Below the pieces are notes generated by a model, which saw only the letters and a program-made list of their open reading frames with translations, did not search any database and was not told where the DNA came from. From positions 128,001 through 192,000 of the IMG/VR virus record IMGVR_UViG_3300012346_000380: a stretch of DNA of 64,000 bases; one strand, 5' to 3'. Source of the stretch: a virus (lineage: Duplodnaviria; Heunggongvirae; Uroviricota; Caudoviricetes). Below, in pieces: positions 2,815 through 40,215 of this stretch (position 1 is the stretch's first letter; every line of letters starts with the position of its first letter). Position numbers and translations under genes: made by a program.

Positions 2815-3336
2815 TTATTTAGTTAAATCTATTGTACCATTAAGTTTAATGACACCATCTTTAATGGTAACATTTGCTCCTCCTGTTTTTAATACGTTCG
2901 GCGGTAATATTTCGCTTGCACCGTTTGGATATTGAGCAGCTTTTCTTTTCAAATATTCTATTCGTTTTTGATCTTCTATAGGTAAACGTTTGGTTTTTAA
3001 GAATTTATCTCTAATCACGTCTCCATCTTCTTCAGTTAATTTATCAACAGGCTTTTTAAAGTTAATTAAACCAGATTTTATAGATGGTATTAATAAAATA
3101 TCACCTTCACCGATTGTAAATGGATTTGAGATGTTGTTATATTTCAATAAATAATCTGCATAACTAGCATCCCCATAGTATCTTTTAGCTAAAAGATCTA
3201 TTCTACACGCATATTCTTTACCAACTATTATTTTATCTATGATTTCTGTGCTAGAAGACGAAAATAATAAAGTAGGTTCTGTCATTGCAACAACGCCATC
3301 AATTATTTTTTTATTTTCAAAGGTTTTTAAATTCAT
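2815..3336 (-). CDS. Baseplate wedge protein, T4 gp53-like (LysM-like)
   Basis: RIDLLAKRYYGD...LLKYNNISNPF...GDILLIP motif. Confidence 0.7.
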   Translation of the reverse strand: MNLKTFENKKIIDGVVAMTEPTLLFSSSSTEIIDKIIVGKEYACRIDLLAKRYYGDASYADYLLKYNNISNPFTIGEGDILLIPSIKSGLINFKKPVDKLTEEDGDVIRDKFLKTKRLPIEDQKRIEYLKRKAAQYPNGASEILPPNVLKTGGANVTIKDGVIKLNGTIDLTK

Positions 3337-5078
3337 TATCCGTTAGCTAATTTTTTGTATTCGTCAAATTCCGCCTCAGTCATTTGTATACTTGATTTAG
3401 ATGCATATAAATTAGGGGCTGAAGTATGTGTTCCATCACCTTTAGCAGTTCCCGCTATTTTTTCTTTATTAATATCTGGACCACCCTTTGGTGTTATATA
3501 GAATCTACCTTTACCTGAATTAAACATCGATTCAATTTCAGATTTATCTCTAGGTCTACCTGGTTTTAAAGTAATTGAAATTTCTAAATTTTCTGGAAAA
3601 TCTAAAGGTCCTAAAGGTCCTGTAAATTTTACTTCAGTCTTTTCGCATATTAAATTACCAATAACTGCGATAGGATTTAAAGGATTTCCAATAGTAACAT
3701 GCCAAGAACCGGTAGCTTCACCTGTTAAAAGAGCATTTGCAATTTGACCGCCTTGCGGTGTATTAAATAAATCCATCAAAGCACCTCCTAATAAATTATT
3801 AGCAGTTTTACCTAATAAATTTGTAATTCCCGCCATTGTTCCTCCTCCGGATAAACCCTTTAAATCACCTAAAACAGATTTAAAAAATCCACCATAATCT
3901 CCATTTTGTAATTTACTTATATCGCCTAAAGGTCTTCCTATAGATCCTTGACCTGAATTTAAATATCTAACTTCTCCACCCCAAAATGGTGCATTAGAAT
4001 ATGTTAATGCTAACATATTTGCAAATTGATCTAAAAATAAAGCCTTTGGATTTGTATCACCTATAGCTCTCATCTCATATTGAAAATTAAGCGTAAATGA
4101 TTGATTGAATTCCATACCGCCGTCTCTAACATTCATAGATCTAATAGAATTATATGGACCAAATACGTGGTTTGGATATGTTTCTTTAAAAGCATCATAA
4201 CCTGAACCTTGTGATTCTATTCTTCTTTTACCAGCGGCATCAACGCCATTAGCTGTTGCATTCAATGCACTTAATATTGTACTATTATCTATGAATGAAC
4301 CTAATTTACCTCTTCTAGCTTGATTTTGAGAATCTAAAGTTTGAACATCAGCTTCTACGGTTTTCCATTTATAATTGTAATCAAATTTTAATATTTCATC
4401 TAATTTATTACCAGTAACTTCTGACATCCACGTGATAGCTCTAGCAACGTCCGGTTGAGGTACGTCTTTAAGTTTACCATCTTTACCTGACATTTGCAAA
4501 TTCATAATATCATCACCAACTGGAAATGAAAATCTACGTAAAGTAATCATGTGATTATTTGGAATTTTACCTAAGTATTTACAAAGAGCAAAATCAGACC
4601 ATTCATATTTGTAACTTTTACCTGGGCCAGCATTACATCTTTCAATTATCTTTGATACAGTTGGGTTTTCGTATACACTACTATCACCAAAATCTACAGT
4701 ATTGTATGAATCTTCTGTAGTGTCTTTGAACGGAGTTCCATTAAATCTAAATAATGCAAAATTATTAAAAATAGATTGCTGTGTAGATTTACCATGAACA
4801 GTTTCGTTAGTGTCTTTTGTAGTATATGAAGTAGATAAAGCTTTATTGTTGTATAATTTAAGACCTTGTATATCTTCGCTAGGTTTTAGTTCATTTATTG
4901 GTGTTGCTAATGTTTGATCAGGAGAAATAACATCTTCATCTGCAATAGGCGGCGTTCCAAGTAAATCTTTTTTAGAAGCGTCTATCTTAGCTTGACTACC
5001 AGTCTTAAGGTTTACTTTAGCTTTTTTTGCTAATTCTGCATCTTTCGCTGCTTTAATCTGTTCTTTAGTTAATTCCAT
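3336..5078 (-). CDS. Putative baseplate/tail-tube-fold structural protein
   Basis: 580 aa; WHVTIGNPLNPIAVIGNL...FPENLEISITLKPGRPRD; late-promoter motif upstream. Confidence 0.5.
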   Translation of the reverse strand: MELTKEQIKAAKDAELAKKAKVNLKTGSQAKIDASKKDLLGTPPIADEDVISPDQTLATPINELKPSEDIQGLKLYNNKALSTSYTTKDTNETVHGKSTQQSIFNNFALFRFNGTPFKDTTEDSYNTVDFGDSSVYENPTVSKIIERCNAGPGKSYKYEWSDFALCKYLGKIPNNHMITLRRFSFPVGDDIMNLQMSGKDGKLKDVPQPDVARAITWMSEVTGNKLDEILKFDYNYKWKTVEADVQTLDSQNQARRGKLGSFIDNSTILSALNATANGVDAAGKRRIESQGSGYDAFKETYPNHVFGPYNSIRSMNVRDGGMEFNQSFTLNFQYEMRAIGDTNPKALFLDQFANMLALTYSNAPFWGGEVRYLNSGQGSIGRPLGDISKLQNGDYGGFFKSVLGDLKGLSGGGTMAGITNLLGKTANNLLGGALMDLFNTPQGGQIANALLTGEATGSWHVTIGNPLNPIAVIGNLICEKTEVKFTGPLGPLDFPENLEISITLKPGRPRDKSEIESMFNSGKGRFYITPKGGPDINKEKIAGTAKGDGTHTSAPNLYASKSSIQMTEAEFDEYKKLANG

Positions 5079-12688: not shown

Positions 12689-13426
12689 TTATTTCTCTGG
12701 ATTGTCTACTCTCCATTTGTCGTATCTGTCTACGACATCTTGTAAAATCTTAGCTCTTACAATATCTTTGTTGGTAAAGATATGTTCGCCTACACCTTTA
12801 ACACCTTTCATTAAGGCTGTAAATCCAGGAAGACCCGCGCTTGCTTTAGGAATATCATATTGACTAACGTCACCTGTTACTAAAACTTTAGAGTTTTTAC
12901 CCATACGAGTTACGAATAACATAAGTTGTTTAAAGGTTGCATTTTGAGCTTCATCTAAAATCATGAAAGCATCGTCAAAGGTATCACCTCTCATAAATGC
13001 AAGTGGTTTGAATTCTATTGCTCCAGAAGAAATTAATCCTTCTGTTAATTCATCACCTACAATCTTCTTGAAGTTTGAAATATAAGATTGCATGTATGGA
13101 TCAATTTTGTCTGCAATATCTCCGGGTAAGAATCCTAACTTTTCTCCAGATTCTTGAATTGGTTTACATAAAATAATTTTGGAAACTTGTTTTGTGGCTA
13201 ATAAATGTAATGACGTAAAACACGCTGTAAATGTTTTTGACGTACCTGCTGGTCCAGAACAAAATGTAATTTCGTTCTTTTGGATCTGCTGAAAATAATC
13301 TTGTTGACTTGGTTTTAATTGTACTCCTACTAAATCTAATTCTTTAACTGTTGTCTTTTTTGGTTTGGCAGCTGTTGGTCTGCTGCTAGTTGATTTTGTT
13401 TTACTTTCTGCTGATCTTTTTTGCAT
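12689..13426 (-). CDS. phoH: PhoH-family ATPase
   Basis: GPAGTSKT, LGFLPG, MRGDTF, LDEAQN, GDVSQ. Confidence 0.95.
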   Translation of the reverse strand: MQKRSAESKTKSTSSRPTAAKPKKTTVKELDLVGVQLKPSQQDYFQQIQKNEITFCSGPAGTSKTFTACFTSLHLLATKQVSKIILCKPIQESGEKLGFLPGDIADKIDPYMQSYISNFKKIVGDELTEGLISSGAIEFKPLAFMRGDTFDDAFMILDEAQNATFKQLMLFVTRMGKNSKVLVTGDVSQYDIPKASAGLPGFTALMKGVKGVGEHIFTNKDIVRAKILQDVVDRYDKWRVDNPEK

Positions 13427-13451
13427 AATTTAGTTTTTGTTTAATTTGTGG

Positions 13452-13709
13452 TTAATCACCTGCATCCACGACTAACTCTTTCAGCTTCACGAGTTTGTCG
13501 CACTTCTCATACTCTTCGACTTCTTCGAAGTATTTAATTAATAAATCTATAAATTTGGATCTTTGGCCTATACCGTGCGGTATTTCAATAGAATTACTTC
13601 CATCTTGGAACGCAATGAAACGATTTACCGTTTTAGTAAAGTTTCGTGTTATTATATAGTAACTAGATCTCATGAGTTGATCTTTCTCCTCATTTGATAT
13701 GTAGCTCAT
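13452..13709 (-). CDS. Small protein with C-terminal UVR-like motif
   Basis: YFEEVEEYEKCDKL. Confidence 0.6.
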   Translation of the reverse strand: MSYISNEEKDQLMRSSYYIITRNFTKTVNRFIAFQDGSNSIEIPHGIGQRSKFIDLLIKYFEEVEEYEKCDKLVKLKELVVDAGD

Positions 13710-13797
13710 GTGTACTTGTGGTATTTTTATCTTATGCTATATATTTACATAGCGTTTACCGAGTGGATTATTGCAGAATTTTATTATGTTAATAAAA

Positions 13798-13989
13798 TTA
13801 ATCTTGGTCCGCTTGAGATTTAATAGCCTGAACGTACTTGGCCTTGGTTATTTCTGTTCTTCTAGTTACAGATGGTTTTTTAAATTCTTGATTATTTCTA
13901 AGTTGCTGGTTTTGTTTAACTTTAGCAACTTTTCTTTTATATTCTTTTAGAGCTTTTTCTATATTACCGTTTACATCTATGATAATCAT
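13798..13989 (-). CDS. rpsU: Ribosomal protein bS21 (Bacteroidetes type)
   Basis: NIEKALKEYKRK...F.KPSVTRR...KAKYVQ. Confidence 0.88.
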   Translation of the reverse strand: MIIIDVNGNIEKALKEYKRKVAKVKQNQQLRNNQEFKKPSVTRRTEITKAKYVQAIKSQADQD

Positions 13990-14011
13990 AACTGTTTGTT
14001 GTGTTTTTAAA

Positions 14012-14821
14012 TTAATCTAATTCTTTAACTCTATTTATTAAAGATAATTGCTCTGAATTTAAATTTTGAAAATTAGTATTGATTTTTATTAATAGTGCAC
14101 CTGACATTTCTGTACCTGCGATTGGCAAGCCTTTTCCAGGCACTCTTAATATTTTACCCGGAGATGTATTTTCTGGAATTTTTATAGAGATTTTACCGCT
14201 TGGTATTCTAATCTCTAAATTAGTACCTAAAATCATGTCATAGAATTTGACAAAGCTTTCAATCATGACGTCATCACCTTGTATAATATAATTTTCATCG
14301 TATTGTACATTGATATTAATGATTAGATCTCCAGCGGGCGCATTAGAATTAAAAGGATTAGGTTGACCTTTGCCTGCCATTTTATATTTAGAACCTTCTC
14401 TGGCACCTTTAGGTATATTAGCATTAATTCTGCCAGTACCGATGTCGATCGATCTAGAAAATCCATTATAGATTTCACTTACAGTTATAGGAATTGTAAC
14501 TCTAATATCTTGACCTTTGGCATTTGGATTATTTCTATATCCACCAAAGTGCATATTAAAATCATCTGCGAAATTATTACCAAATCCCCAGTTTCTTAAT
14601 AAGTCTTCCAGATTAGGTTGACTATTTCTAGAATCATACTCTTGTTTTTTGTTTTTATCACCTAAAACGGAGTAAGCTTCTTGTATTTGTTGAAATTTTT
14701 GTTTAGTATCTTCACCTGTGTTTTTATCTGGGTGATATTCTTTTGCAAGTTTACGATACGCAGATTTAATCTCTTCCTGACTTGCTGTCTTGGGAACTTT
14801 CAATGTTTCGTAATAATTCAT
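14012..14821 (-). CDS. DnaJ/CbpA-type co-chaperone
   Basis: J domain with HPD; DnaJ C-terminal domain; no zinc finger. Confidence 0.92.
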   Translation of the reverse strand: MNYYETLKVPKTASQEEIKSAYRKLAKEYHPDKNTGEDTKQKFQQIQEAYSVLGDKNKKQEYDSRNSQPNLEDLLRNWGFGNNFADDFNMHFGGYRNNPNAKGQDIRVTIPITVSEIYNGFSRSIDIGTGRINANIPKGAREGSKYKMAGKGQPNPFNSNAPAGDLIININVQYDENYIIQGDDVMIESFVKFYDMILGTNLEIRIPSGKISIKIPENTSPGKILRVPGKGLPIAGTEMSGALLIKINTNFQNLNSEQLSLINRVKELD

Positions 14822-14957
14822 TCTTGCGTTTTTTAATTGCCTCTTTAACTTTTTCTATACCGTCATTTTTAATAAGGTTACGCTTTTCATTACGTTCCAT
14901 CATATCGGCAATTCTTTTAAGTTGAGTTGCAATGTCTGTTAATGCTTTTGGTTCCAT
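14766..14957 (-). CDS. Hypothetical protein
   Basis: 63 aa; LKRIAD coiled coil. Confidence 0.45.
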   Translation of the reverse strand: MEPKALTDIATQLKRIADMMERNEKRNLIKNDGIEKVKEAIKKRKNELLRNIESSQDSKSGRD

Positions 14958-15044
14958 AGTTATTATTTTAATATTGTATTATATATTTCGATTAAAAAAC
15001 AAAGGGCACTTAAGTGCCCTAAATTTTATATTTACCTCCAAAAA

Positions 15045-15341
15045 TTATTGATTGAGCTCTTCGACGTATTTGTGTAAAACTGCGCATTTTTCATACTCTT
15101 CTAATTCTGTAAAATACACAATCATAAAATCCAAAGTGCCTCTTAATTGTTCTATTTGTTTTGGCTCGAGATTATGAATTTTAGTATTTACAATATCGAT
15201 ACCATTTTTAGCAATAGATTCATAATTTTCGCGGACTAATCTATCCACTAAACTATTGTATAATTGCTTTGCGTTAATAATTTCTTCTTGTGACATTTCG
15301 TCATCCATTTCAAATTCGTCGTTTTCGTAGTCTGCAAACAT
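15045..15341 (-). CDS. Small protein with C-terminal UVR-like motif
   Basis: YFTELEEYEKCAVL. Confidence 0.6.
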   Translation of the reverse strand: MFADYENDEFEMDDEMSQEEIINAKQLYNSLVDRLVRENYESIAKNGIDIVNTKIHNLEPKQIEQLRGTLDFMIVYFTELEEYEKCAVLHKYVEELNQ

Positions 15342-15396
15342 ATCTTATAGTTTTATACTGTAAATATAATAAAAAGATTTGACATAAAAAAATAAT

Positions 15397-15771
15397 TTAA
15401 GATATTTTTATTTCTTTTGTCACATTTTTTCTCTCAAATGTAATGTATAGAATACCATTTTCCATTGATGCTTTAATAGTATCGACATTTATGTCTTTAA
15501 TTAATCTAAATGATCTTGTAAAAGATTTTTTAAATTTTGTTTCATCAGCTTCTTCAACCTTACTAGAAACAACAAGTAAATCTCCATCGACATCAATCTT
15601 AATGTCTTTTTTAGAAAATCCAGGTAATGCGATACTTAGTGTATTATCCTCTAAACTAGTATCATTAAACGGATTTGCAAATCTGAATTCTTGTTTCCAT
15701 GTCGGTTCAATACTATCAAACATTTTTTCAGCTAATTTTTCAAATGAACTTTTTCCCGTGTGTCCAAACAT
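15397..15771 (-). CDS. Small heat-shock protein (Hsp20)
   Basis: LPGF.K.DI.I, FTRSFRL, A.MENGIL. Confidence 0.9.
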   Translation of the reverse strand: MFGHTGKSSFEKLAEKMFDSIEPTWKQEFRFANPFNDTSLEDNTLSIALPGFSKKDIKIDVDGDLLVVSSKVEEADETKFKKSFTRSFRLIKDINVDTIKASMENGILYITFERKNVTKEIKIS

Positions 15772-34954: not shown

Positions 34955-35164
34955 TTAGTTATTTAATAATTCAACTGGTTTAAGAATATCTGAATCTGTG
35001 AGATGGATAAATTTATTAATTTCTAAACTTACCATAACAGTATTGTGTTCTTGATTATTATAATATAATAATACAGTGTCTGGTTTAATTTCACTGTACC
35101 ATTCTAATTTTAGAATATTGTGATACTTTACAACATCTTCTGTATTAATATAAATATAAATCAT
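34955..35164 (-). CDS. Hypothetical protein
   Basis: 69 aa; translationally coupled to clpP. Confidence 0.5.
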   Translation of the reverse strand: MIYIYINTEDVVKYHNILKLEWYSEIKPDTVLLYYNNQEHNTVMVSLEINKFIHLTDSDILKPVELLNN

Positions 35165-35850
35165 TATTTTCTAGATTTTGGTTTAACTACTTTGTCAATA
35201 ATACCATATTTAACTGCATCTTCTGCGCTTAACCAAAAATCTCTAGTAGCGTCTTTCATTACAGTATCAGCTGTCTTACCACAATAAGATCCTAAAAGTT
35301 CAAATAGAATTTTGTTAACTTTTTGCCATTCTTTCCAGTCGATTTCTGCGTCTTGAATATTTCCGCTAAATCCACCTGAAGATTGGTGTAACATTGTTGT
35401 TGAAAATCTTAATGAACTTCTTTTACCTTTTGTTCCAGCACCCAATAAAACTGATCCCATTGAAGCTGCCATACCTGTATTTACAGTTGCAATATCAGCA
35501 TTGATATAATCCATAACATCAACCATTGATAGACCTGACTTAACAGAACCACCGGGGGAGTCAATGTGCATCGTAATATCTTCTTTACCTACAGAATCTA
35601 AAAACATTAATTGAGCTTGAACTACAGTTGACATATTGTCATTTACTGGACCAGCAACCCATAAAACTCTTTCCATCATTAATCTAGAAAAAATATCCAT
35701 TTGTACTGCACGTAGTTCACGTTCTTCTAAAATATATGGAGTCATCGATGCATTAACACCTTTTTGGAATGAATCTAAATTTGATGAAGATAATCCAAAT
35801 TCTGATTTAGCGTATCTTTGAAATTCTTGTTCTTTTGGAATGTATATCAT
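35164..35850 (-). CDS. clpP: ClpP protease proteolytic subunit (Bacteroidetes-like N-terminal extension)
   Basis: DIFSRL, SPGG, AASMG (Ser), MLHQ (His), RDFW (Asp). Confidence 0.95.
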   Translation of the reverse strand: MIYIPKEQEFQRYAKSEFGLSSSNLDSFQKGVNASMTPYILEERELRAVQMDIFSRLMMERVLWVAGPVNDNMSTVVQAQLMFLDSVGKEDITMHIDSPGGSVKSGLSMVDVMDYINADIATVNTGMAASMGSVLLGAGTKGKRSSLRFSTTMLHQSSGGFSGNIQDAEIDWKEWQKVNKILFELLGSYCGKTADTVMKDATRDFWLSAEDAVKYGIIDKVVKPKSRK

Positions 35851-35851
35851 T

Positions 35852-36160
35852 TTAAATATTTTGTTTAATTTGTTTAATCATGTCGCAAGTTTCATATTCT
35901 TCTAATCCTTCGAAATATTCCATTGCTTTACCTAGAGATTTTGACCAATTGTCACCTATATTCTCTAGTATTAAAGTACTTTTGTTATTATAATCATCTA
36001 TAATATAACACAGTACACTTTCTGTTTCAATCAACTCAATACGATTTAAAATATATTGAACTATTCTTCTATAAAACAGATCTACATCGTGCATGGCGTC
36101 GTGTACGTCTTCTATAGAATCATTAGATTGCTTGACCCTGAGAGTTGGTATGTTTGCCAT
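35852..36160 (-). CDS. Small protein with C-terminal UVR-like motif
   Basis: YFEGLEEYETCDMI; immediately upstream of clpP. Confidence 0.6.
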   Translation of the reverse strand: MANIPTLRVKQSNDSIEDVHDAMHDVDLFYRRIVQYILNRIELIETESVLCYIIDDYNNKSTLILENIGDNWSKSLGKAMEYFEGLEEYETCDMIKQIKQNI

Positions 36161-37028
36161 ATACTTTTATATTAAGATATTCTGATAATAACTCTCTGTA
36201 TTGTTCTTGCGTAGCATCTGATTCAACTAGAGTATTTACATTTTTAATAAAATCTAAACCTTTAACGCATGTTACTTGTTCTAATTTATTATTAACATGT
36301 TGGTGATAGTAGAATAATGGTTTTTTCAAGATCATTTCATATTGAATAGGTGCAGATCCATTAGATTTAATTTTGTCTGCTAATTCAAAATGATGTTGGT
36401 AGAAATGAATATTATCGGCGAAATGTGTGTATGTGCCTAATTCTAAATTTGTGTATGCTTCTTCTTTTAACCAAAGATACATGTGTTGGTGCACGAATGC
36501 AAAGAATGGTGCATCGAATGTAAGACCATAGAAAATATCGTTTGATCTCATTTGAACTTTCATATTCAATTTGTTATCTCTGATAAAGAAATTTAAGTAC
36601 ATTGTACAAACAAAATCTTTATTACCTTCAAATTGATATTTAGGTTGATTTAAGAATGCAATAGCCTGTCTTGTATTTTTATCTTTCTTTAAAGAATCCA
36701 AACACCATGCTAATTGATCATTGAATAATAAGGCACCGTAATTTGAATTGATTTCATTAGTACCTGGATTTGTAATGTTTTTCCAAAAATTAGAAAACTT
36801 ATTGATGTAATCGATATTGGTATCTTTTTGTAAGTACCAAGCTAATTCGCCAGCAAAATATTTAAAGTTAAATTTACGATCTTCGAAATTTGCAATAGGT
36901 CTAGTCGAATCTACGTCTATTTGGCCATAAATTAATTCTTTGACTTTAAGATCTCTAGGTTGTGATATCGAACCTTTGCGTTCGATATCACGTATTAAAG
37001 ATATAAATGTTTCTGAGAAGTTATTCAT
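36123..37028 (-). CDS. Thymidylate-synthase-fold enzyme, most similar to T4 gp42 dCMP hydroxymethylase
   Basis: ELAWY, EINSNYG, DFVCT, IRDNKLN, MRSND..GLTFD (Asp at the specificity position), HFYQHHF. Confidence 0.75.
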   Translation of the reverse strand: MNNFSETFISLIRDIERKGSISQPRDLKVKELIYGQIDVDSTRPIANFEDRKFNFKYFAGELAWYLQKDTNIDYINKFSNFWKNITNPGTNEINSNYGALLFNDQLAWCLDSLKKDKNTRQAIAFLNQPKYQFEGNKDFVCTMYLNFFIRDNKLNMKVQMRSNDIFYGLTFDAPFFAFVHQHMYLWLKEEAYTNLELGTYTHFADNIHFYQHHFELADKIKSNGSAPIQYEMILKKPLFYYHQHVNNKLEQVTCVKGLDFIKNVNTLVESDATQEQYRELLSEYLNIKVYGKHTNSQGQAI

Positions 37029-37066
37029 ATAATATTGTATTAATAATGTATTTTAATCTTATACTA

Positions 37067-39076
37067 CTATTTTAGAGAAAGTTTATCAGATCCTTTAATA
37101 TGATTGATTGTATAAACTTTATCTCCAACTTTCATTGTATTATCTAAAATATTATCTGACAATAAATCTTCTACATAATTTTGAATTGCTCTTTTAATTG
37201 GTCTAGCACCAAATTGTTGATCGTAACCGGCTTGAGCTAAAAACACTTTTGATTGCTTTGTAAATTTGATGTTATATCCTTGATCGTACATTCTTTCGAT
37301 AACATCCATCAATTCTAAATCTACGATTGCAATAACGTCCTCTTCTTTTAAATGATCGAATAGAATAATATCATCCATTCTATTTAAAAATTCAGGTGCA
37401 AATTTATTCTTAAGTTCTTTTCTAACGATAGCTTCAACTTTGGCTTTGTTTGTACCAATATTTGTATCACTATCAAATCCAATGCCTGTTCCAAATTCTG
37501 CCACTTTACGTGCACCAATATTAGACGTCATGATTATAATTGTATTAGTAAAATCTACAGTACGTCCTAAAGAATCTGTTAATCTACCATCGTCTAAAAC
37601 TTGCAATAAAGTATTAAATGTATCTGGGTGTGCTTTTTCAATTTCATCAAATAAAACAACAGAATATGGTTTACGTCTTACTGCTTCAGTTAATTGTCCA
37701 CCTTCTTCATAACCAACATAACCTGGAGGTGGTCCGACTAAACGAGATACGTTGAATTTTTCTTGGTATTCACTCATATCTAATCTGATCATAGCATCTT
37801 CAGAGCCATAATAATATCTTGCAAGAGCTTTAACTGTTTCAGTTTTACCAACACCAGTAGGTCCTAAAAACATGAATGACCCGATTGGTTTTCTAGAGCT
37901 AGAAACTCCAGTTCTAGATCTTCTAACAACTCTACATAAAGCATCTACAGCTTCGTCTTGTCCAATAATAAGTTTCTTTAATTCGTCTGCCATTTTCATG
38001 ATGATTTTCTTTTCATCACCATTTAATCTTGTTACAGGAATTCCAGTTATATCAGCTATAACTCCGGCTACATCTTCTTCAGTTACCTTTGTTTTTTTGT
38101 CTCTGATGTTTTGTTCCCACTCTTTGATTTTTGCATCAATTTCATTTTTCTTATTGATTTCAGCATCTCTGTAGAATGCAGCCTGTTCATAATCTTGTTT
38201 GGTTACAGCTTCTACTTTAGCTAATCTAGCATCATCAACTTCTTTTTCTAATTTCTTAACGAATTCAGGAACTTTGATTTCTTGCATGTGAATTTTTGCA
38301 CCAGCTTCATCCATAACATCGATAGCTTTGTCCGGTAATTCTCTTTGAGTAATATAACGTTCACTTAAATTAACACATGCATATAAAGCATCTTCTGTAT
38401 AAACTACAGCATGATGATCTTCATATTTGTCTTTGATTCTTTTTAAGATCTCAACAGTATCTTCACATGACGGTGGATCGATGAAAACTTCTTGGAAACG
38501 ACGCGTTAATGCTCCATCGCTTTCAATATTTTCTCTATATTCGTCTAGTGTAGTTGCACCGATACATTGTACTTGTCCACGTGCCAATGCTGGCTTAAGA
38601 ATATTAGAAGCATCTAAAGATCCTCCAGCTCCACCTGCACCAACTAAAGTATGAATCTCATCGATGAATAGAATAATATCAGTGTTGTCTTTTAATTCCT
38701 CAACAATATTTTTCATTCTCTCTTCAAATTCACCTCTGTATTTTGTACCTGCTACAATATTATTGATATTAAGTGAAATGATTCTTTTATTAAAAAGAGT
38801 TCTAGCTACTTTTTTATCTATAATTCTCTGAGCGATAGCTTCTACTAATGCGGTTTTACCAACACCCGGGTCCCCTAAAATAATAGGATTGTTTTTCTTT
38901 CTACGAGAAAGAATTTGACATATACGGTGTACTTCTTTTTCACGACCAATAATAGCATCTAATTTACCTTCTGATGCCATTTGTGTTAAGTCTTCGCCAA
39001 ATTGATCCAACAACGTAGTTGACTTTGGTTTCTTTTTATTGCCGCCTCTACCGAAACTTTCTTCAATGTTATCCAT
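37067..39076 (-). CDS. clpC: ClpC-type AAA+ unfoldase lacking the Clp_N domain
   Basis: GDPGVGKT and GPTGVGKT Walker A motifs, KYRG and GYVG pore loops, UVR M-domain QDYEQAA.YRD, IGF loop; start moved to MDNIEES. Confidence 0.92.
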   Translation of the reverse strand: MDNIEESFGRGGNKKKPKSTTLLDQFGEDLTQMASEGKLDAIIGREKEVHRICQILSRRKKNNPIILGDPGVGKTALVEAIAQRIIDKKVARTLFNKRIISLNINNIVAGTKYRGEFEERMKNIVEELKDNTDIILFIDEIHTLVGAGGAGGSLDASNILKPALARGQVQCIGATTLDEYRENIESDGALTRRFQEVFIDPPSCEDTVEILKRIKDKYEDHHAVVYTEDALYACVNLSERYITQRELPDKAIDVMDEAGAKIHMQEIKVPEFVKKLEKEVDDARLAKVEAVTKQDYEQAAFYRDAEINKKNEIDAKIKEWEQNIRDKKTKVTEEDVAGVIADITGIPVTRLNGDEKKIIMKMADELKKLIIGQDEAVDALCRVVRRSRTGVSSSRKPIGSFMFLGPTGVGKTETVKALARYYYGSEDAMIRLDMSEYQEKFNVSRLVGPPPGYVGYEEGGQLTEAVRRKPYSVVLFDEIEKAHPDTFNTLLQVLDDGRLTDSLGRTVDFTNTIIIMTSNIGARKVAEFGTGIGFDSDTNIGTNKAKVEAIVRKELKNKFAPEFLNRMDDIILFDHLKEEDVIAIVDLELMDVIERMYDQGYNIKFTKQSKVFLAQAGYDQQFGARPIKRAIQNYVEDLLSDNILDNTMKVGDKVYTINHIKGSDKLSLK

Positions 39077-39089
39077 TCTTATTTGTTTA

Positions 39090-39545
39090 TTATTTTGATA
39101 AATTATCTGCCGCATTCACAGCAGGCAAAAGGTCTGGTTTAATTCTTGGTTTTATTCCCATAGATTGTACATATCCAGTAGCTGCGGCAACTAATTTATT
39201 AGAAGCATGCTTTTCATTGCTATTTAGATCAAGATCTATGTTATGTATATTTATACCATTTTCGCGGAGATACATTGCTAGAGAAACTGATTTTTCAACT
39301 TCATTCCACAATTTTGTCCACATATCATTAATTCTGTCAATCTTTTCTCTTTGAAACAAGACATGACATCCAGCTTCTCCGATATGGATCACTACTGTTG
39401 TAACATAAGTTGTATATACGCCTTTATTATGAGAATCACATCCGATATAAATTCTTAAATTTGAATTTTTATTGTTCTTGATGTATTCTTTTAAATATGA
39501 TGCGATTTCAACTTTTTCATACCCTGTTAATTTTTGAAATAGCAT
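39090..39545 (-). CDS. RNase H-like YkuK/DUF458 protein
   Basis: IYIGCDS, EVEKS, DLD, AAD. Confidence 0.8.
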   Translation of the reverse strand: MLFQKLTGYEKVEIASYLKEYIKNNKNSNLRIYIGCDSHNKGVYTTYVTTVVIHIGEAGCHVLFQREKIDRINDMWTKLWNEVEKSVSLAMYLRENGINIHNIDLDLNSNEKHASNKLVAAATGYVQSMGIKPRIKPDLLPAVNAADNLSK

Positions 39546-39546
39546 C

Positions 39547-40215
39547 TTAGAAATTTGTTGATTGATCTGTTTTATATTTTTCCGTGAATTCACGAATTTT
39601 GTCTCTAGCTTCTTCTGCTGTATCAACGATTCTAAAAAGGTTTAAATCTTTATCGCTAATCATTCCATTTTCAACAGCAACTTCTTTTAACCATTCGATT
39701 AGGCCTGTCCAATATTCTTTACCAACTAAAACGATTGGATATTTTATATTGTGACCGCATTGAGCAAGAGTAACTGCTTCAAAGAATTCATCTAAAGTTC
39801 CAAGACCACCTGGAAATACTGCAAATCCTTGTGAATATTTAAGGAACATTACCTTTCTTGTAAAGAAATATCTACATTCAACACCAAGATCTACATATTG
39901 GTTCATACCAGCTTCAAATGGTAATTCAATTCCAATTCCAATAGATTTACCACCAACTTCATTTGCGCCCTGATTAGCAGCTTGCATGATTCCAGGACCA
40001 CCTCCAGTAATTACGCCAAATCCTTCTCTACTTATAAGAGCTCCGAATTTTCTGGCTTCTTCATACCATTTACTACCAACTTTAGTTCTAGCACTACCGA
40101 AAACCGAAACACAAGATCCTAATTCATTAAATGTATCAAATCCTTTTGTGAATTCCCCTTGAATCCTCAAGATTTGCCATGCATCTTCTGCTTTTTGTTC
40201 ATTTTTACTTATCAT
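39547..40215 (-). CDS. LOG-family nucleotide monophosphate nucleosidase (TIGR00730-like)
   Basis: VFGSAR, TGGGPGIM, PGGLGTLDE. Confidence 0.92.
   Translation of the reverse strand: MISKNEQKAEDAWQILRIQGEFTKGFDTFNELGSCVSVFGSARTKVGSKWYEEARKFGALISREGFGVITGGGPGIMQAANQGANEVGGKSIGIGIELPFEAGMNQYVDLGVECRYFFTRKVMFLKYSQGFAVFPGGLGTLDEFFEAVTLAQCGHNIKYPIVLVGKEYWTGLIEWLKEVAVENGMISDKDLNLFRIVDTAEEARDKIREFTEKYKTDQSTNF

Follow-up and report, generated by a model that had tools for sequence, protein, structure and literature searches.

ClpC unfoldases are normally held inactive and are switched on through their N-terminal domain (NTD). The closest described counterparts of the system treated here, which is encoded in a 64,000-nucleotide stretch of phage DNA (the window; bases 128001-192000 of the 256,444-bp IMG/VR record IMGVR_UViG_3300012346_000380), are the ClpC-ClpP proteases of the Firmicutes B. 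subtilis and S. aureus. In both of them and in the phage pair, ClpC has two AAA modules, an M-domain that is a short coiled coil with a UVR motif and an aromatic residue at its tip (position 436), and an IGF-type loop for docking to ClpP, and ClpP bears the canonical triad. Carroni et al. (2017, PMC5699869) and Jenne et al. (2025, PMC12583610) describe a control of Firmicutes ClpC that is exerted through the NTD and the M-domain. In addition, a phage-made adaptor-like protein, Gp53 of SPO1, has been shown to bind ClpC and to modulate ClpCP (2019, PMC6873191). A search of the literature on phage ClpC and ClpP in jumbo phages found nothing relevant.

The record that contains the window has direct terminal repeats and 32% G+C, is rated 100% complete and comes from a marine phage of a T4-like jumbo clade; every gene discussed here lies on the minus strand. 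To judge by the sequence, a functional ClpC-ClpP protease of the phage is encoded in the window, with a ClpC devoid of the NTD, and beside clpP lies the gene of a small protein, a member of a phage family here called EEYE.C, which is tentatively considered below as the partner of this ClpC.

The phage ClpC and ClpP

The two components of the protease are encoded as follows.

37067..39076, minus strand (open reading frame (ORF) to 39115, 682 residues): ClpC-type double-ring AAA+ unfoldase, 669 residues from Met14, assigned by its Pfam domains
35164..35850, minus strand: ClpP peptidase, 228 residues (PF00574, E 4.6e-56)

ClpC probably starts at Met14 (position 39076), the residue with which the consensus sequence of 12 homologues opens. 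Pfam recognises in the protein the domains AAA (PF00004), AAA_lid_9 (PF17871), AAA_2 (PF07724) and ClpB_D2-small (PF10431), and both pairs of Walker A and Walker B motifs (GVGKT/DE) are present and invariant across 12 phage ClpC sequences. The D2 module carries a GTGIGF loop in which G544, G546 and F547 are invariant in the same 12 sequences, and whose GIGF stretch we take, from general knowledge of ClpX, ClpA and ClpC, to be the ClpP-binding loop ([IVL]GF). Residues 290-320 match the Pfam UVR motif (PF02151) at 23 bits (cut-off 21.5), and the M-domain can be aligned without gaps with those of the ClpC structures 3pxi and 6em8, an alignment that places Tyr309 at residue 436 of the B. subtilis and S. 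aureus proteins. Tyr309, Glu310, Ala312, Arg316 and Asp317, at the tip of the M-domain, are all invariant in the 12 phage sequences. The start at 39076, the two AAA modules, the UVR M-domain and the IGF loop had been noticed in a first-pass annotation made from the sequence alone, and all of them hold.

The same annotation had claimed that the protein lacks Clp_N, and this is the main point at which it departs from the Firmicutes enzyme, together with the presence of Tyr rather than Phe at the tip. No match to Clp_N (PF02861) was obtained for the ClpC protein, its first 60 residues match nothing, and phrog_4871 is matched at E 2e-244 but only from position 155 of its 764 positions; the protein is without some 150 N-terminal positions of the profile. 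Clp-type unfoldases are annotated in phages under this PHROG and also in huge-phage metagenomes. No separate Clp_N gene, a finding that the first-pass annotation had named as fatal to its reading, was detected in a six-frame search of the 256,444-bp genome in which 10 control genomes were positive, so the reading is not refuted on this count. MecA (PF05389) and ClpS (PF02617), too, gave no match in the complete genome at E<=0.1, a further difference from the Firmicutes systems. Homologues of ClpC were found in 13 phages, all of them 659-695 residues long (12 at 66-74% identity and one at 50%), and genes of two uncultured phages of ~640 kb are 53-54% identical; on the other hand, a contrasting phage ClpC of 836 residues, 50% identical, retains Clp_N (E 9.6e-18). 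Since the 13 relatives are short while the 836-residue homologue keeps the domain, the loss of Clp_N is read from these sequences as derived, and as common to the members of a marine jumbo-phage clade.

Two further observations concern the clpC locus. In a related phage (locus L115, G024:C1:62800-67400, ORFs 465-1760 and 2968-4080) the gene comes in two pieces, broken exactly within the second Walker A. The first piece ends in GPTGVGK, followed by C and ~31 residues, and the second starts with ~113 residues ending in SHN, followed by TETVKAL; the pieces are separated by ~1.2 kb and an ORF of 96 residues, and a weak match to Pfam Intein_splicing (E 8e-4) lies just before the junction. By its sequence, this arrangement resembles that of a natural split intein whose N-fragment is very short. 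In the window, directly upstream of clpC (39090-40215), lie the genes of an RNaseH_like protein (PF04308) and of a LOG/SLOG 'lysine decarboxylase-like' protein (PF03641, PF18306).

ClpP aligns to solved ClpPs from residue ~32 onwards (E 1e-44), and its Ser (AASMG), His (MLHQ) and Asp (TRDFW) fall in their catalytic columns, which bears out the intact triad reported by the first reading. Its residues 1-35 (window 35746-35850) form an N-terminal extension of ~35 residues that has no counterpart in the solved ClpPs and distinguishes the protein from that of Firmicutes; the extension may be a propeptide or a modification of the gate. It is also conserved in a distant phage ClpP (locus L113). A sigma-70 promoter scan of the clp block, whose coverage excludes Bacteroidota and T4-type promoters, yielded sites no commoner than in shuffled sequences.

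The EEYE.C family of small proteins

Three small ORFs of the genome share the motif YF-x3-EEYE[KT]C.

35852..36160, minus strand: clpP-adjacent paralogue, 102 residues, candidate ClpC partner (sequence, synteny, structure prediction, docking)
13452..13709, minus strand: bS21/phoH-adjacent paralogue, 85 residues, on the most conserved branch of the family
15045..15341, minus strand: paralogue of the hsp20/exonuclease-dnaJ slot, 98 residues, EEYE.C family member

The three were located as the first-pass annotation had them, and neither a motif scan nor a profile search of the 927 ORFs of the genome brought up a fourth. Their N-termini, which had been described as unrelated, are in fact part of a common core of ~75 residues that is homologous in all three proteins (28-sequence alignment), and AlphaFold2 (AF2) predicts the same core for the 85-residue and the 102-residue paralogue. 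In the former the model runs through a helix, a short helix, a beta-hairpin and two helices at 49-63 and 67-82 (predicted local distance difference test, pLDDT, 86.7), and in the latter an N-terminal strand is added to this core (pLDDT 88.0). In the models the motif lies in an internal helical hairpin, where it makes up the turn and the initial one and a half turns of the last helix; the tip of the hairpin thus carries a near-invariant [YF]-E-x-C.

A profile built from the three proteins retrieved 722 proteins at E<=0.01 from a collection clustered at 90%, and 94 representatives at 50% clustering, most of them matched over positions ~27-103 of 105. Of 240 proteins retrieved, 229 contain YE.C, and those that do not are fragments, variants or false matches. 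This invariance is partly an ascertainment effect, as the motif weighs most heavily in the word index as well as in the short profile, and by itself it is not taken to demonstrate that the residues are catalytic or bind metal. Most members are acidic (median isoelectric point, pI, 5.4) and have a single Cys, that of the motif, observations to which the same bias applies. Alignment and profile thus assign all three, as paralogues, to a single phage family that is specific to viruses and consists of one domain of ~75 residues. Its proteins are called hypothetical in all named sources, and the hits, which belong to hundreds of clusters, are exclusively viral.

Searches for a known relative were carried out at several levels. 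Pfam and PHROGs gave only chance-level matches to the three proteins, which belong to no Pfam family, and a profile search of PDB sequences with the family found nothing below E 0.2, and no UvrB, McsA or ClpC. With the model as query, Foldseek against PDB returned nothing at E<=0.001, and the best score of VIA-align wide (Z 6.8) corresponded to generic helical bundles within the stated noise; BFVD and Atlas searches yielded only uncharacterised viral proteins, and tblastn of two paralogues against 50,697 GenBank phage records gave no match at 1e-3. The BAG domain, considered in view of the dnaJ context of the family, was discarded, as its Z of 5.5-5.9 is helical-bundle noise. In six proteins of 203-235 residues (P0174, P0180, P0192, P0198, P0225 and P0227) the EEYE.C domain is C-terminal and is preceded by a conserved N-domain of ~100 residues; DUF3846 was rejected as the identity of this N-domain, the similarity being sub-threshold (E 0.003-0.02) and uninformative on function.

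The first-pass annotation had also pointed to a resemblance between the motif and UVR, and had suggested a profile search to probe it. The resemblance is real over ~10 residues, and it does not extend to homology. PF02151, for which the ClpC M-domain served as a positive control, gives no match to the three small proteins at E<=1 or to any of 28 members of the family at E<=10, and in the six-frame search of the genome it finds ClpC only. Alignment of the family by hhalign with the UVR block of 12 phage ClpCs places YEKC..L on YE.AA..RD, with a probability of 0.5% and an E of 0.11 over 10 columns. No UvrB or ClpC was among the matches listed by the fold searches with the EEYE.C model, and the nearest Atlas cluster with a Pfam family, a viral cluster of 63-residue proteins with UVR in 32% of its members, has a score of 0.83, which falls in the 'often chance' range. 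Like the UVR of UvrB, UvrC, McsA and the ClpC M-domain, the family presents a helical hairpin with [DE][YF]E-x-small residue at the tip. Unlike UVR, it has a near-invariant Cys in the place of Ala-Ala and no RD, and its hairpin is predicted to be packed inside a larger globular domain, together with one more helix and a beta-hairpin. By every test run the family is not UVR, and the likeness that remains would be an analogy of shape, that of a helical hairpin with an acidic-aromatic tip.

Neighbourhoods of the family members

The genes that surround the three members in the window are the following.

36123..37028, minus strand: thymidylate-synthase-family (thy-like) gene between clpC and the small gene (PF00303, E 4.2e-21, 220 of 266 positions)
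12689..13426, minus strand: PhoH-like ATPase (PF02562, E 2.3e-63)
13798..13989, minus strand: bS21 ribosomal protein (PF01165, E 8.2e-10)
14012..14821, minus strand: DnaJ, with J-domain and DnaJ_C (PF00226, E 3.5e-25; PF01556, E 2.5e-30)
15397..15771, minus strand: Hsp20 small heat-shock protein (PF00011, E 1.3e-15)

The clp block is tightly packed: the small gene stops 1 nt before the ATG of clpP, and 38 nt at its start are shared with the end of the thy-like gene. The order clpC, thy-like gene, EEYE.C member, clpP is conserved in ~12 related genomes. The paralogues at 13452 and 15045 do not lie beside the clp genes; their surroundings, from 12689 to 15771, constitute a phage proteostasis and translation cluster in which phoH, bS21, dnaJ and hsp20 are interleaved with EEYE.C members. 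At this second site the order in the clade is exonuclease/hsp20, member, dnaJ, member, bS21, member, phoH, and the genome of the window is without the copy between dnaJ and bS21. The jumbo clade thus has four position-specific orthogroups, flanking dnaJ, bS21, phoH, hsp20 and clpP. In a quick maximum-likelihood tree the genes group by slot, with 14 label changes versus 104.6 in shuffles, which indicates that the slots are old orthogroups. They differ in their rate of change: the phoH-adjacent orthogroup is very conserved, while the clpP-adjacent one evolves fast (23-55% identity) in genomes whose ClpC holds 66-74%.

Outside this clade, members were observed in two other settings. In three loci of a distant group (L074, L095 and L097) the order is dnaJ, EEYE.C member, DUF6445, with overlapping genes and the member directly after dnaJ. 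In loci L061-L100 (e.g., L065:4857-10519) the member is directly upstream of the large terminase gene, which it often overlaps, and comes after a DUF6171 protein and a conserved protein of 171-180 residues (phrog_16390); this slot before terL is the one in which a small terminase or a late regulator would be expected.

A candidate partner for the N-domain-less ClpC

The case for a dedicated partner starts from the behaviour of the S. aureus enzyme. As reported by Jenne et al. (2025, PMC12583610), the F436A substitution abolishes the resting state of ClpC, deletion of the NTD (ΔN) alone raises the ATPase without leading to proteolysis, and the combination of ΔN and F436A is fully active on a substrate recognised by the pore. 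As the phage ClpC combines the lack of the NTD with an intact M-domain tip, these data make it plausible, by analogy, that it needs a factor that breaks the M-domain contacts. We tentatively propose, with slightly less than even confidence, that the clpP-adjacent orthogroup, and only that one, is this partner and activator, a proposal that draws its predicted binding from docking and its predicted activity from the S. aureus analogy; the paralogues at 13452 and 15045 probably have partners other than ClpC. The 102-residue protein would dock on the N-terminal half of ClpC and would there do for the N-less enzyme what adaptors do through the NTD: the repressive M-domain contacts would be broken, and active ClpC hexamers could then form on ClpP. 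The comparison with Gp53 of SPO1 holds in that both are small phage proteins, with ClpC binding shown for Gp53 and only proposed for the 102-residue protein. The two differ in that Gp53 has 25 kDa and acts on the full-length ClpC of the host, whereas the candidate has 12 kDa, would serve the phage's own N-less ClpC and belongs to a different, unnamed family, a distinction drawn from the description of Gp53.

Multimer modelling with ClpC, which the first-pass annotation had recommended, lends the proposal some support in the case of the clpP-adjacent protein. Residues 1-400 of ClpC (12-row alignment) and the 102-residue protein (15-row alignment) were docked in three runs, alongside three controls. 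The interaction prediction score from aligned errors (ipSAE) was 0.46, 0.48 and 0.46, against 0.01 for the best of the three controls; the runs agree in 100% of contacts, and the pLDDT of the partner is at least 80. In the calibration, whose counts hold only roughly here since custom alignments were used, 58 of 80 solved complexes attained the mark, as did 2 of 110 mismatched pairs. The band at ipSAE <=0.60 contains only 7 of the 80 solved complexes and both passing mismatches, and the pass is for this reason called weak.

A number of points weigh against the proposal. The docking score falls in a band in which most passes are false if the prior was not good, and the docking gave scores and no interface, so that the M-domain is a putative site. 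The ΔN behaviour (PMC12583610) is that of S. aureus ClpC and not of the phage protein, and no homology of the small proteins to UVR, MecA, ClpS or any solved fold was found. Synteny on the clpP side is confined to one T4-like clade and may be inherited gene order, the thy-like gene shares the clpC-clpP block in spite of being unrelated, and in a distant jumbo phage whose ClpC is likewise N-less, the gene between clpC and clpP is MGS-like and no EEYE.C member. Moreover, five records at least 90% complete (58-166 kb) have a member and lack ClpC, ClpP and DnaJ, and in ~27 loci from phages of 60-93 kb the order is DUF6171, 171-residue protein, EEYE.C member, TerL (phrog_6681), portal (phrog_6547). 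For the family as a whole, the refuting case that the first-pass annotation had itself named, EEYE.C proteins equally common in phages lacking Clp genes, therefore applies, contrary to the earlier idea that its members are Clp adaptors, and to judge by these loci the family is a broadly distributed, uncharacterised phage domain that has other contexts and is not tied to Clp.

Several of these points would be accounted for if the small proteins were unrelated to Clp, belonging to a widespread phage family with another role (regulatory, or as an assembly or packaging accessory), with the clpP-side copy kept by inherited gene order and the N-less ClpC working without a dedicated partner. This explanation, credible if somewhat doubtful, fits the members of complete phages without ClpC, ClpP and DnaJ, the order kept before terL, the distant ClpC-ClpP pair without a neighbouring member and the weakness of the docking pass, as well as the fact that the majority of members in the fetched loci sit within the dnaJ/bS21/phoH cluster. 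It has to contend with a docking score that exceeds all three controls by 0.45 and comes with the same contacts in each of the three runs, with the retention of the clpP-adjacent orthogroup despite its fast divergence, and with the ΔN-ClpC of S. aureus, which is reported (PMC12583610) not to be proteolytic on its own.

It is also conceivable, although decidedly improbable, that the family acts on chaperones of the host, either the M-domains of Hsp100 proteins or the DnaK system, and not on the phage ClpC. Such an action would explain both the placement of members beside dnaJ, hsp20 and clpP and their presence in phages without clp genes; members flank dnaJ in the jumbo clade and directly follow and overlap it in L074, L095 and L097, and their mostly acidic character suits protein binding. 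The genome encodes DnaJ, no Hsp70 was found in it, and the phage must consequently rely on the DnaK of its host, which points in the same direction. Against it stand the terL-adjacent clade, which is devoid of chaperone context, the BAG-like fold matches, which do not rise above the noise, and the putative nature of the host partners.

The model put forward by the first-pass annotation, in which three modular adaptors dock on ClpC through a common UVR coiled-coil tail and pick substrates through unrelated N-terminal modules, can draw on the hhalign placement of the 10-residue motif and on the Atlas cluster with UVR members, and is very improbable, since in its architecture and its homology it is to a large extent refuted. 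Sequence homology and the predicted fold both extend over the entire core, with the motif as an internal hairpin turn rather than a free tail, the Pfam profile that finds the motif of ClpC finds none in the family, and members occur in phages without Clp.

Returning to the clpP-adjacent protein as the partner of the N-less ClpC, the proposal could be extended to the entire family, although we consider this extension unlikely. EEYE.C proteins would then form a new, widespread class of phage-made mimics of the Hsp100 M-domain tip. The M-domain that they cap would be that of the N-less phage ClpC itself or, in phages without ClpC, that of the host ClpC or ClpB; the unfoldase would thereby leave its resting state, and position-specific paralogues would couple this to different clients or chaperone partners.

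Whatever its partner, the family is worth characterising, as it is large, matches only viral proteins, has a near-invariant single Cys and lacks a name or a known fold. If the clpP-adjacent protein is indeed an activator, its fold would be new among adaptors, and it would provide a compact means of activating ClpC-type proteases. Finally, a natural ClpC without its N-terminal domain but with the M-domain tip shows viral rewiring of the control over a dangerous unfoldase.

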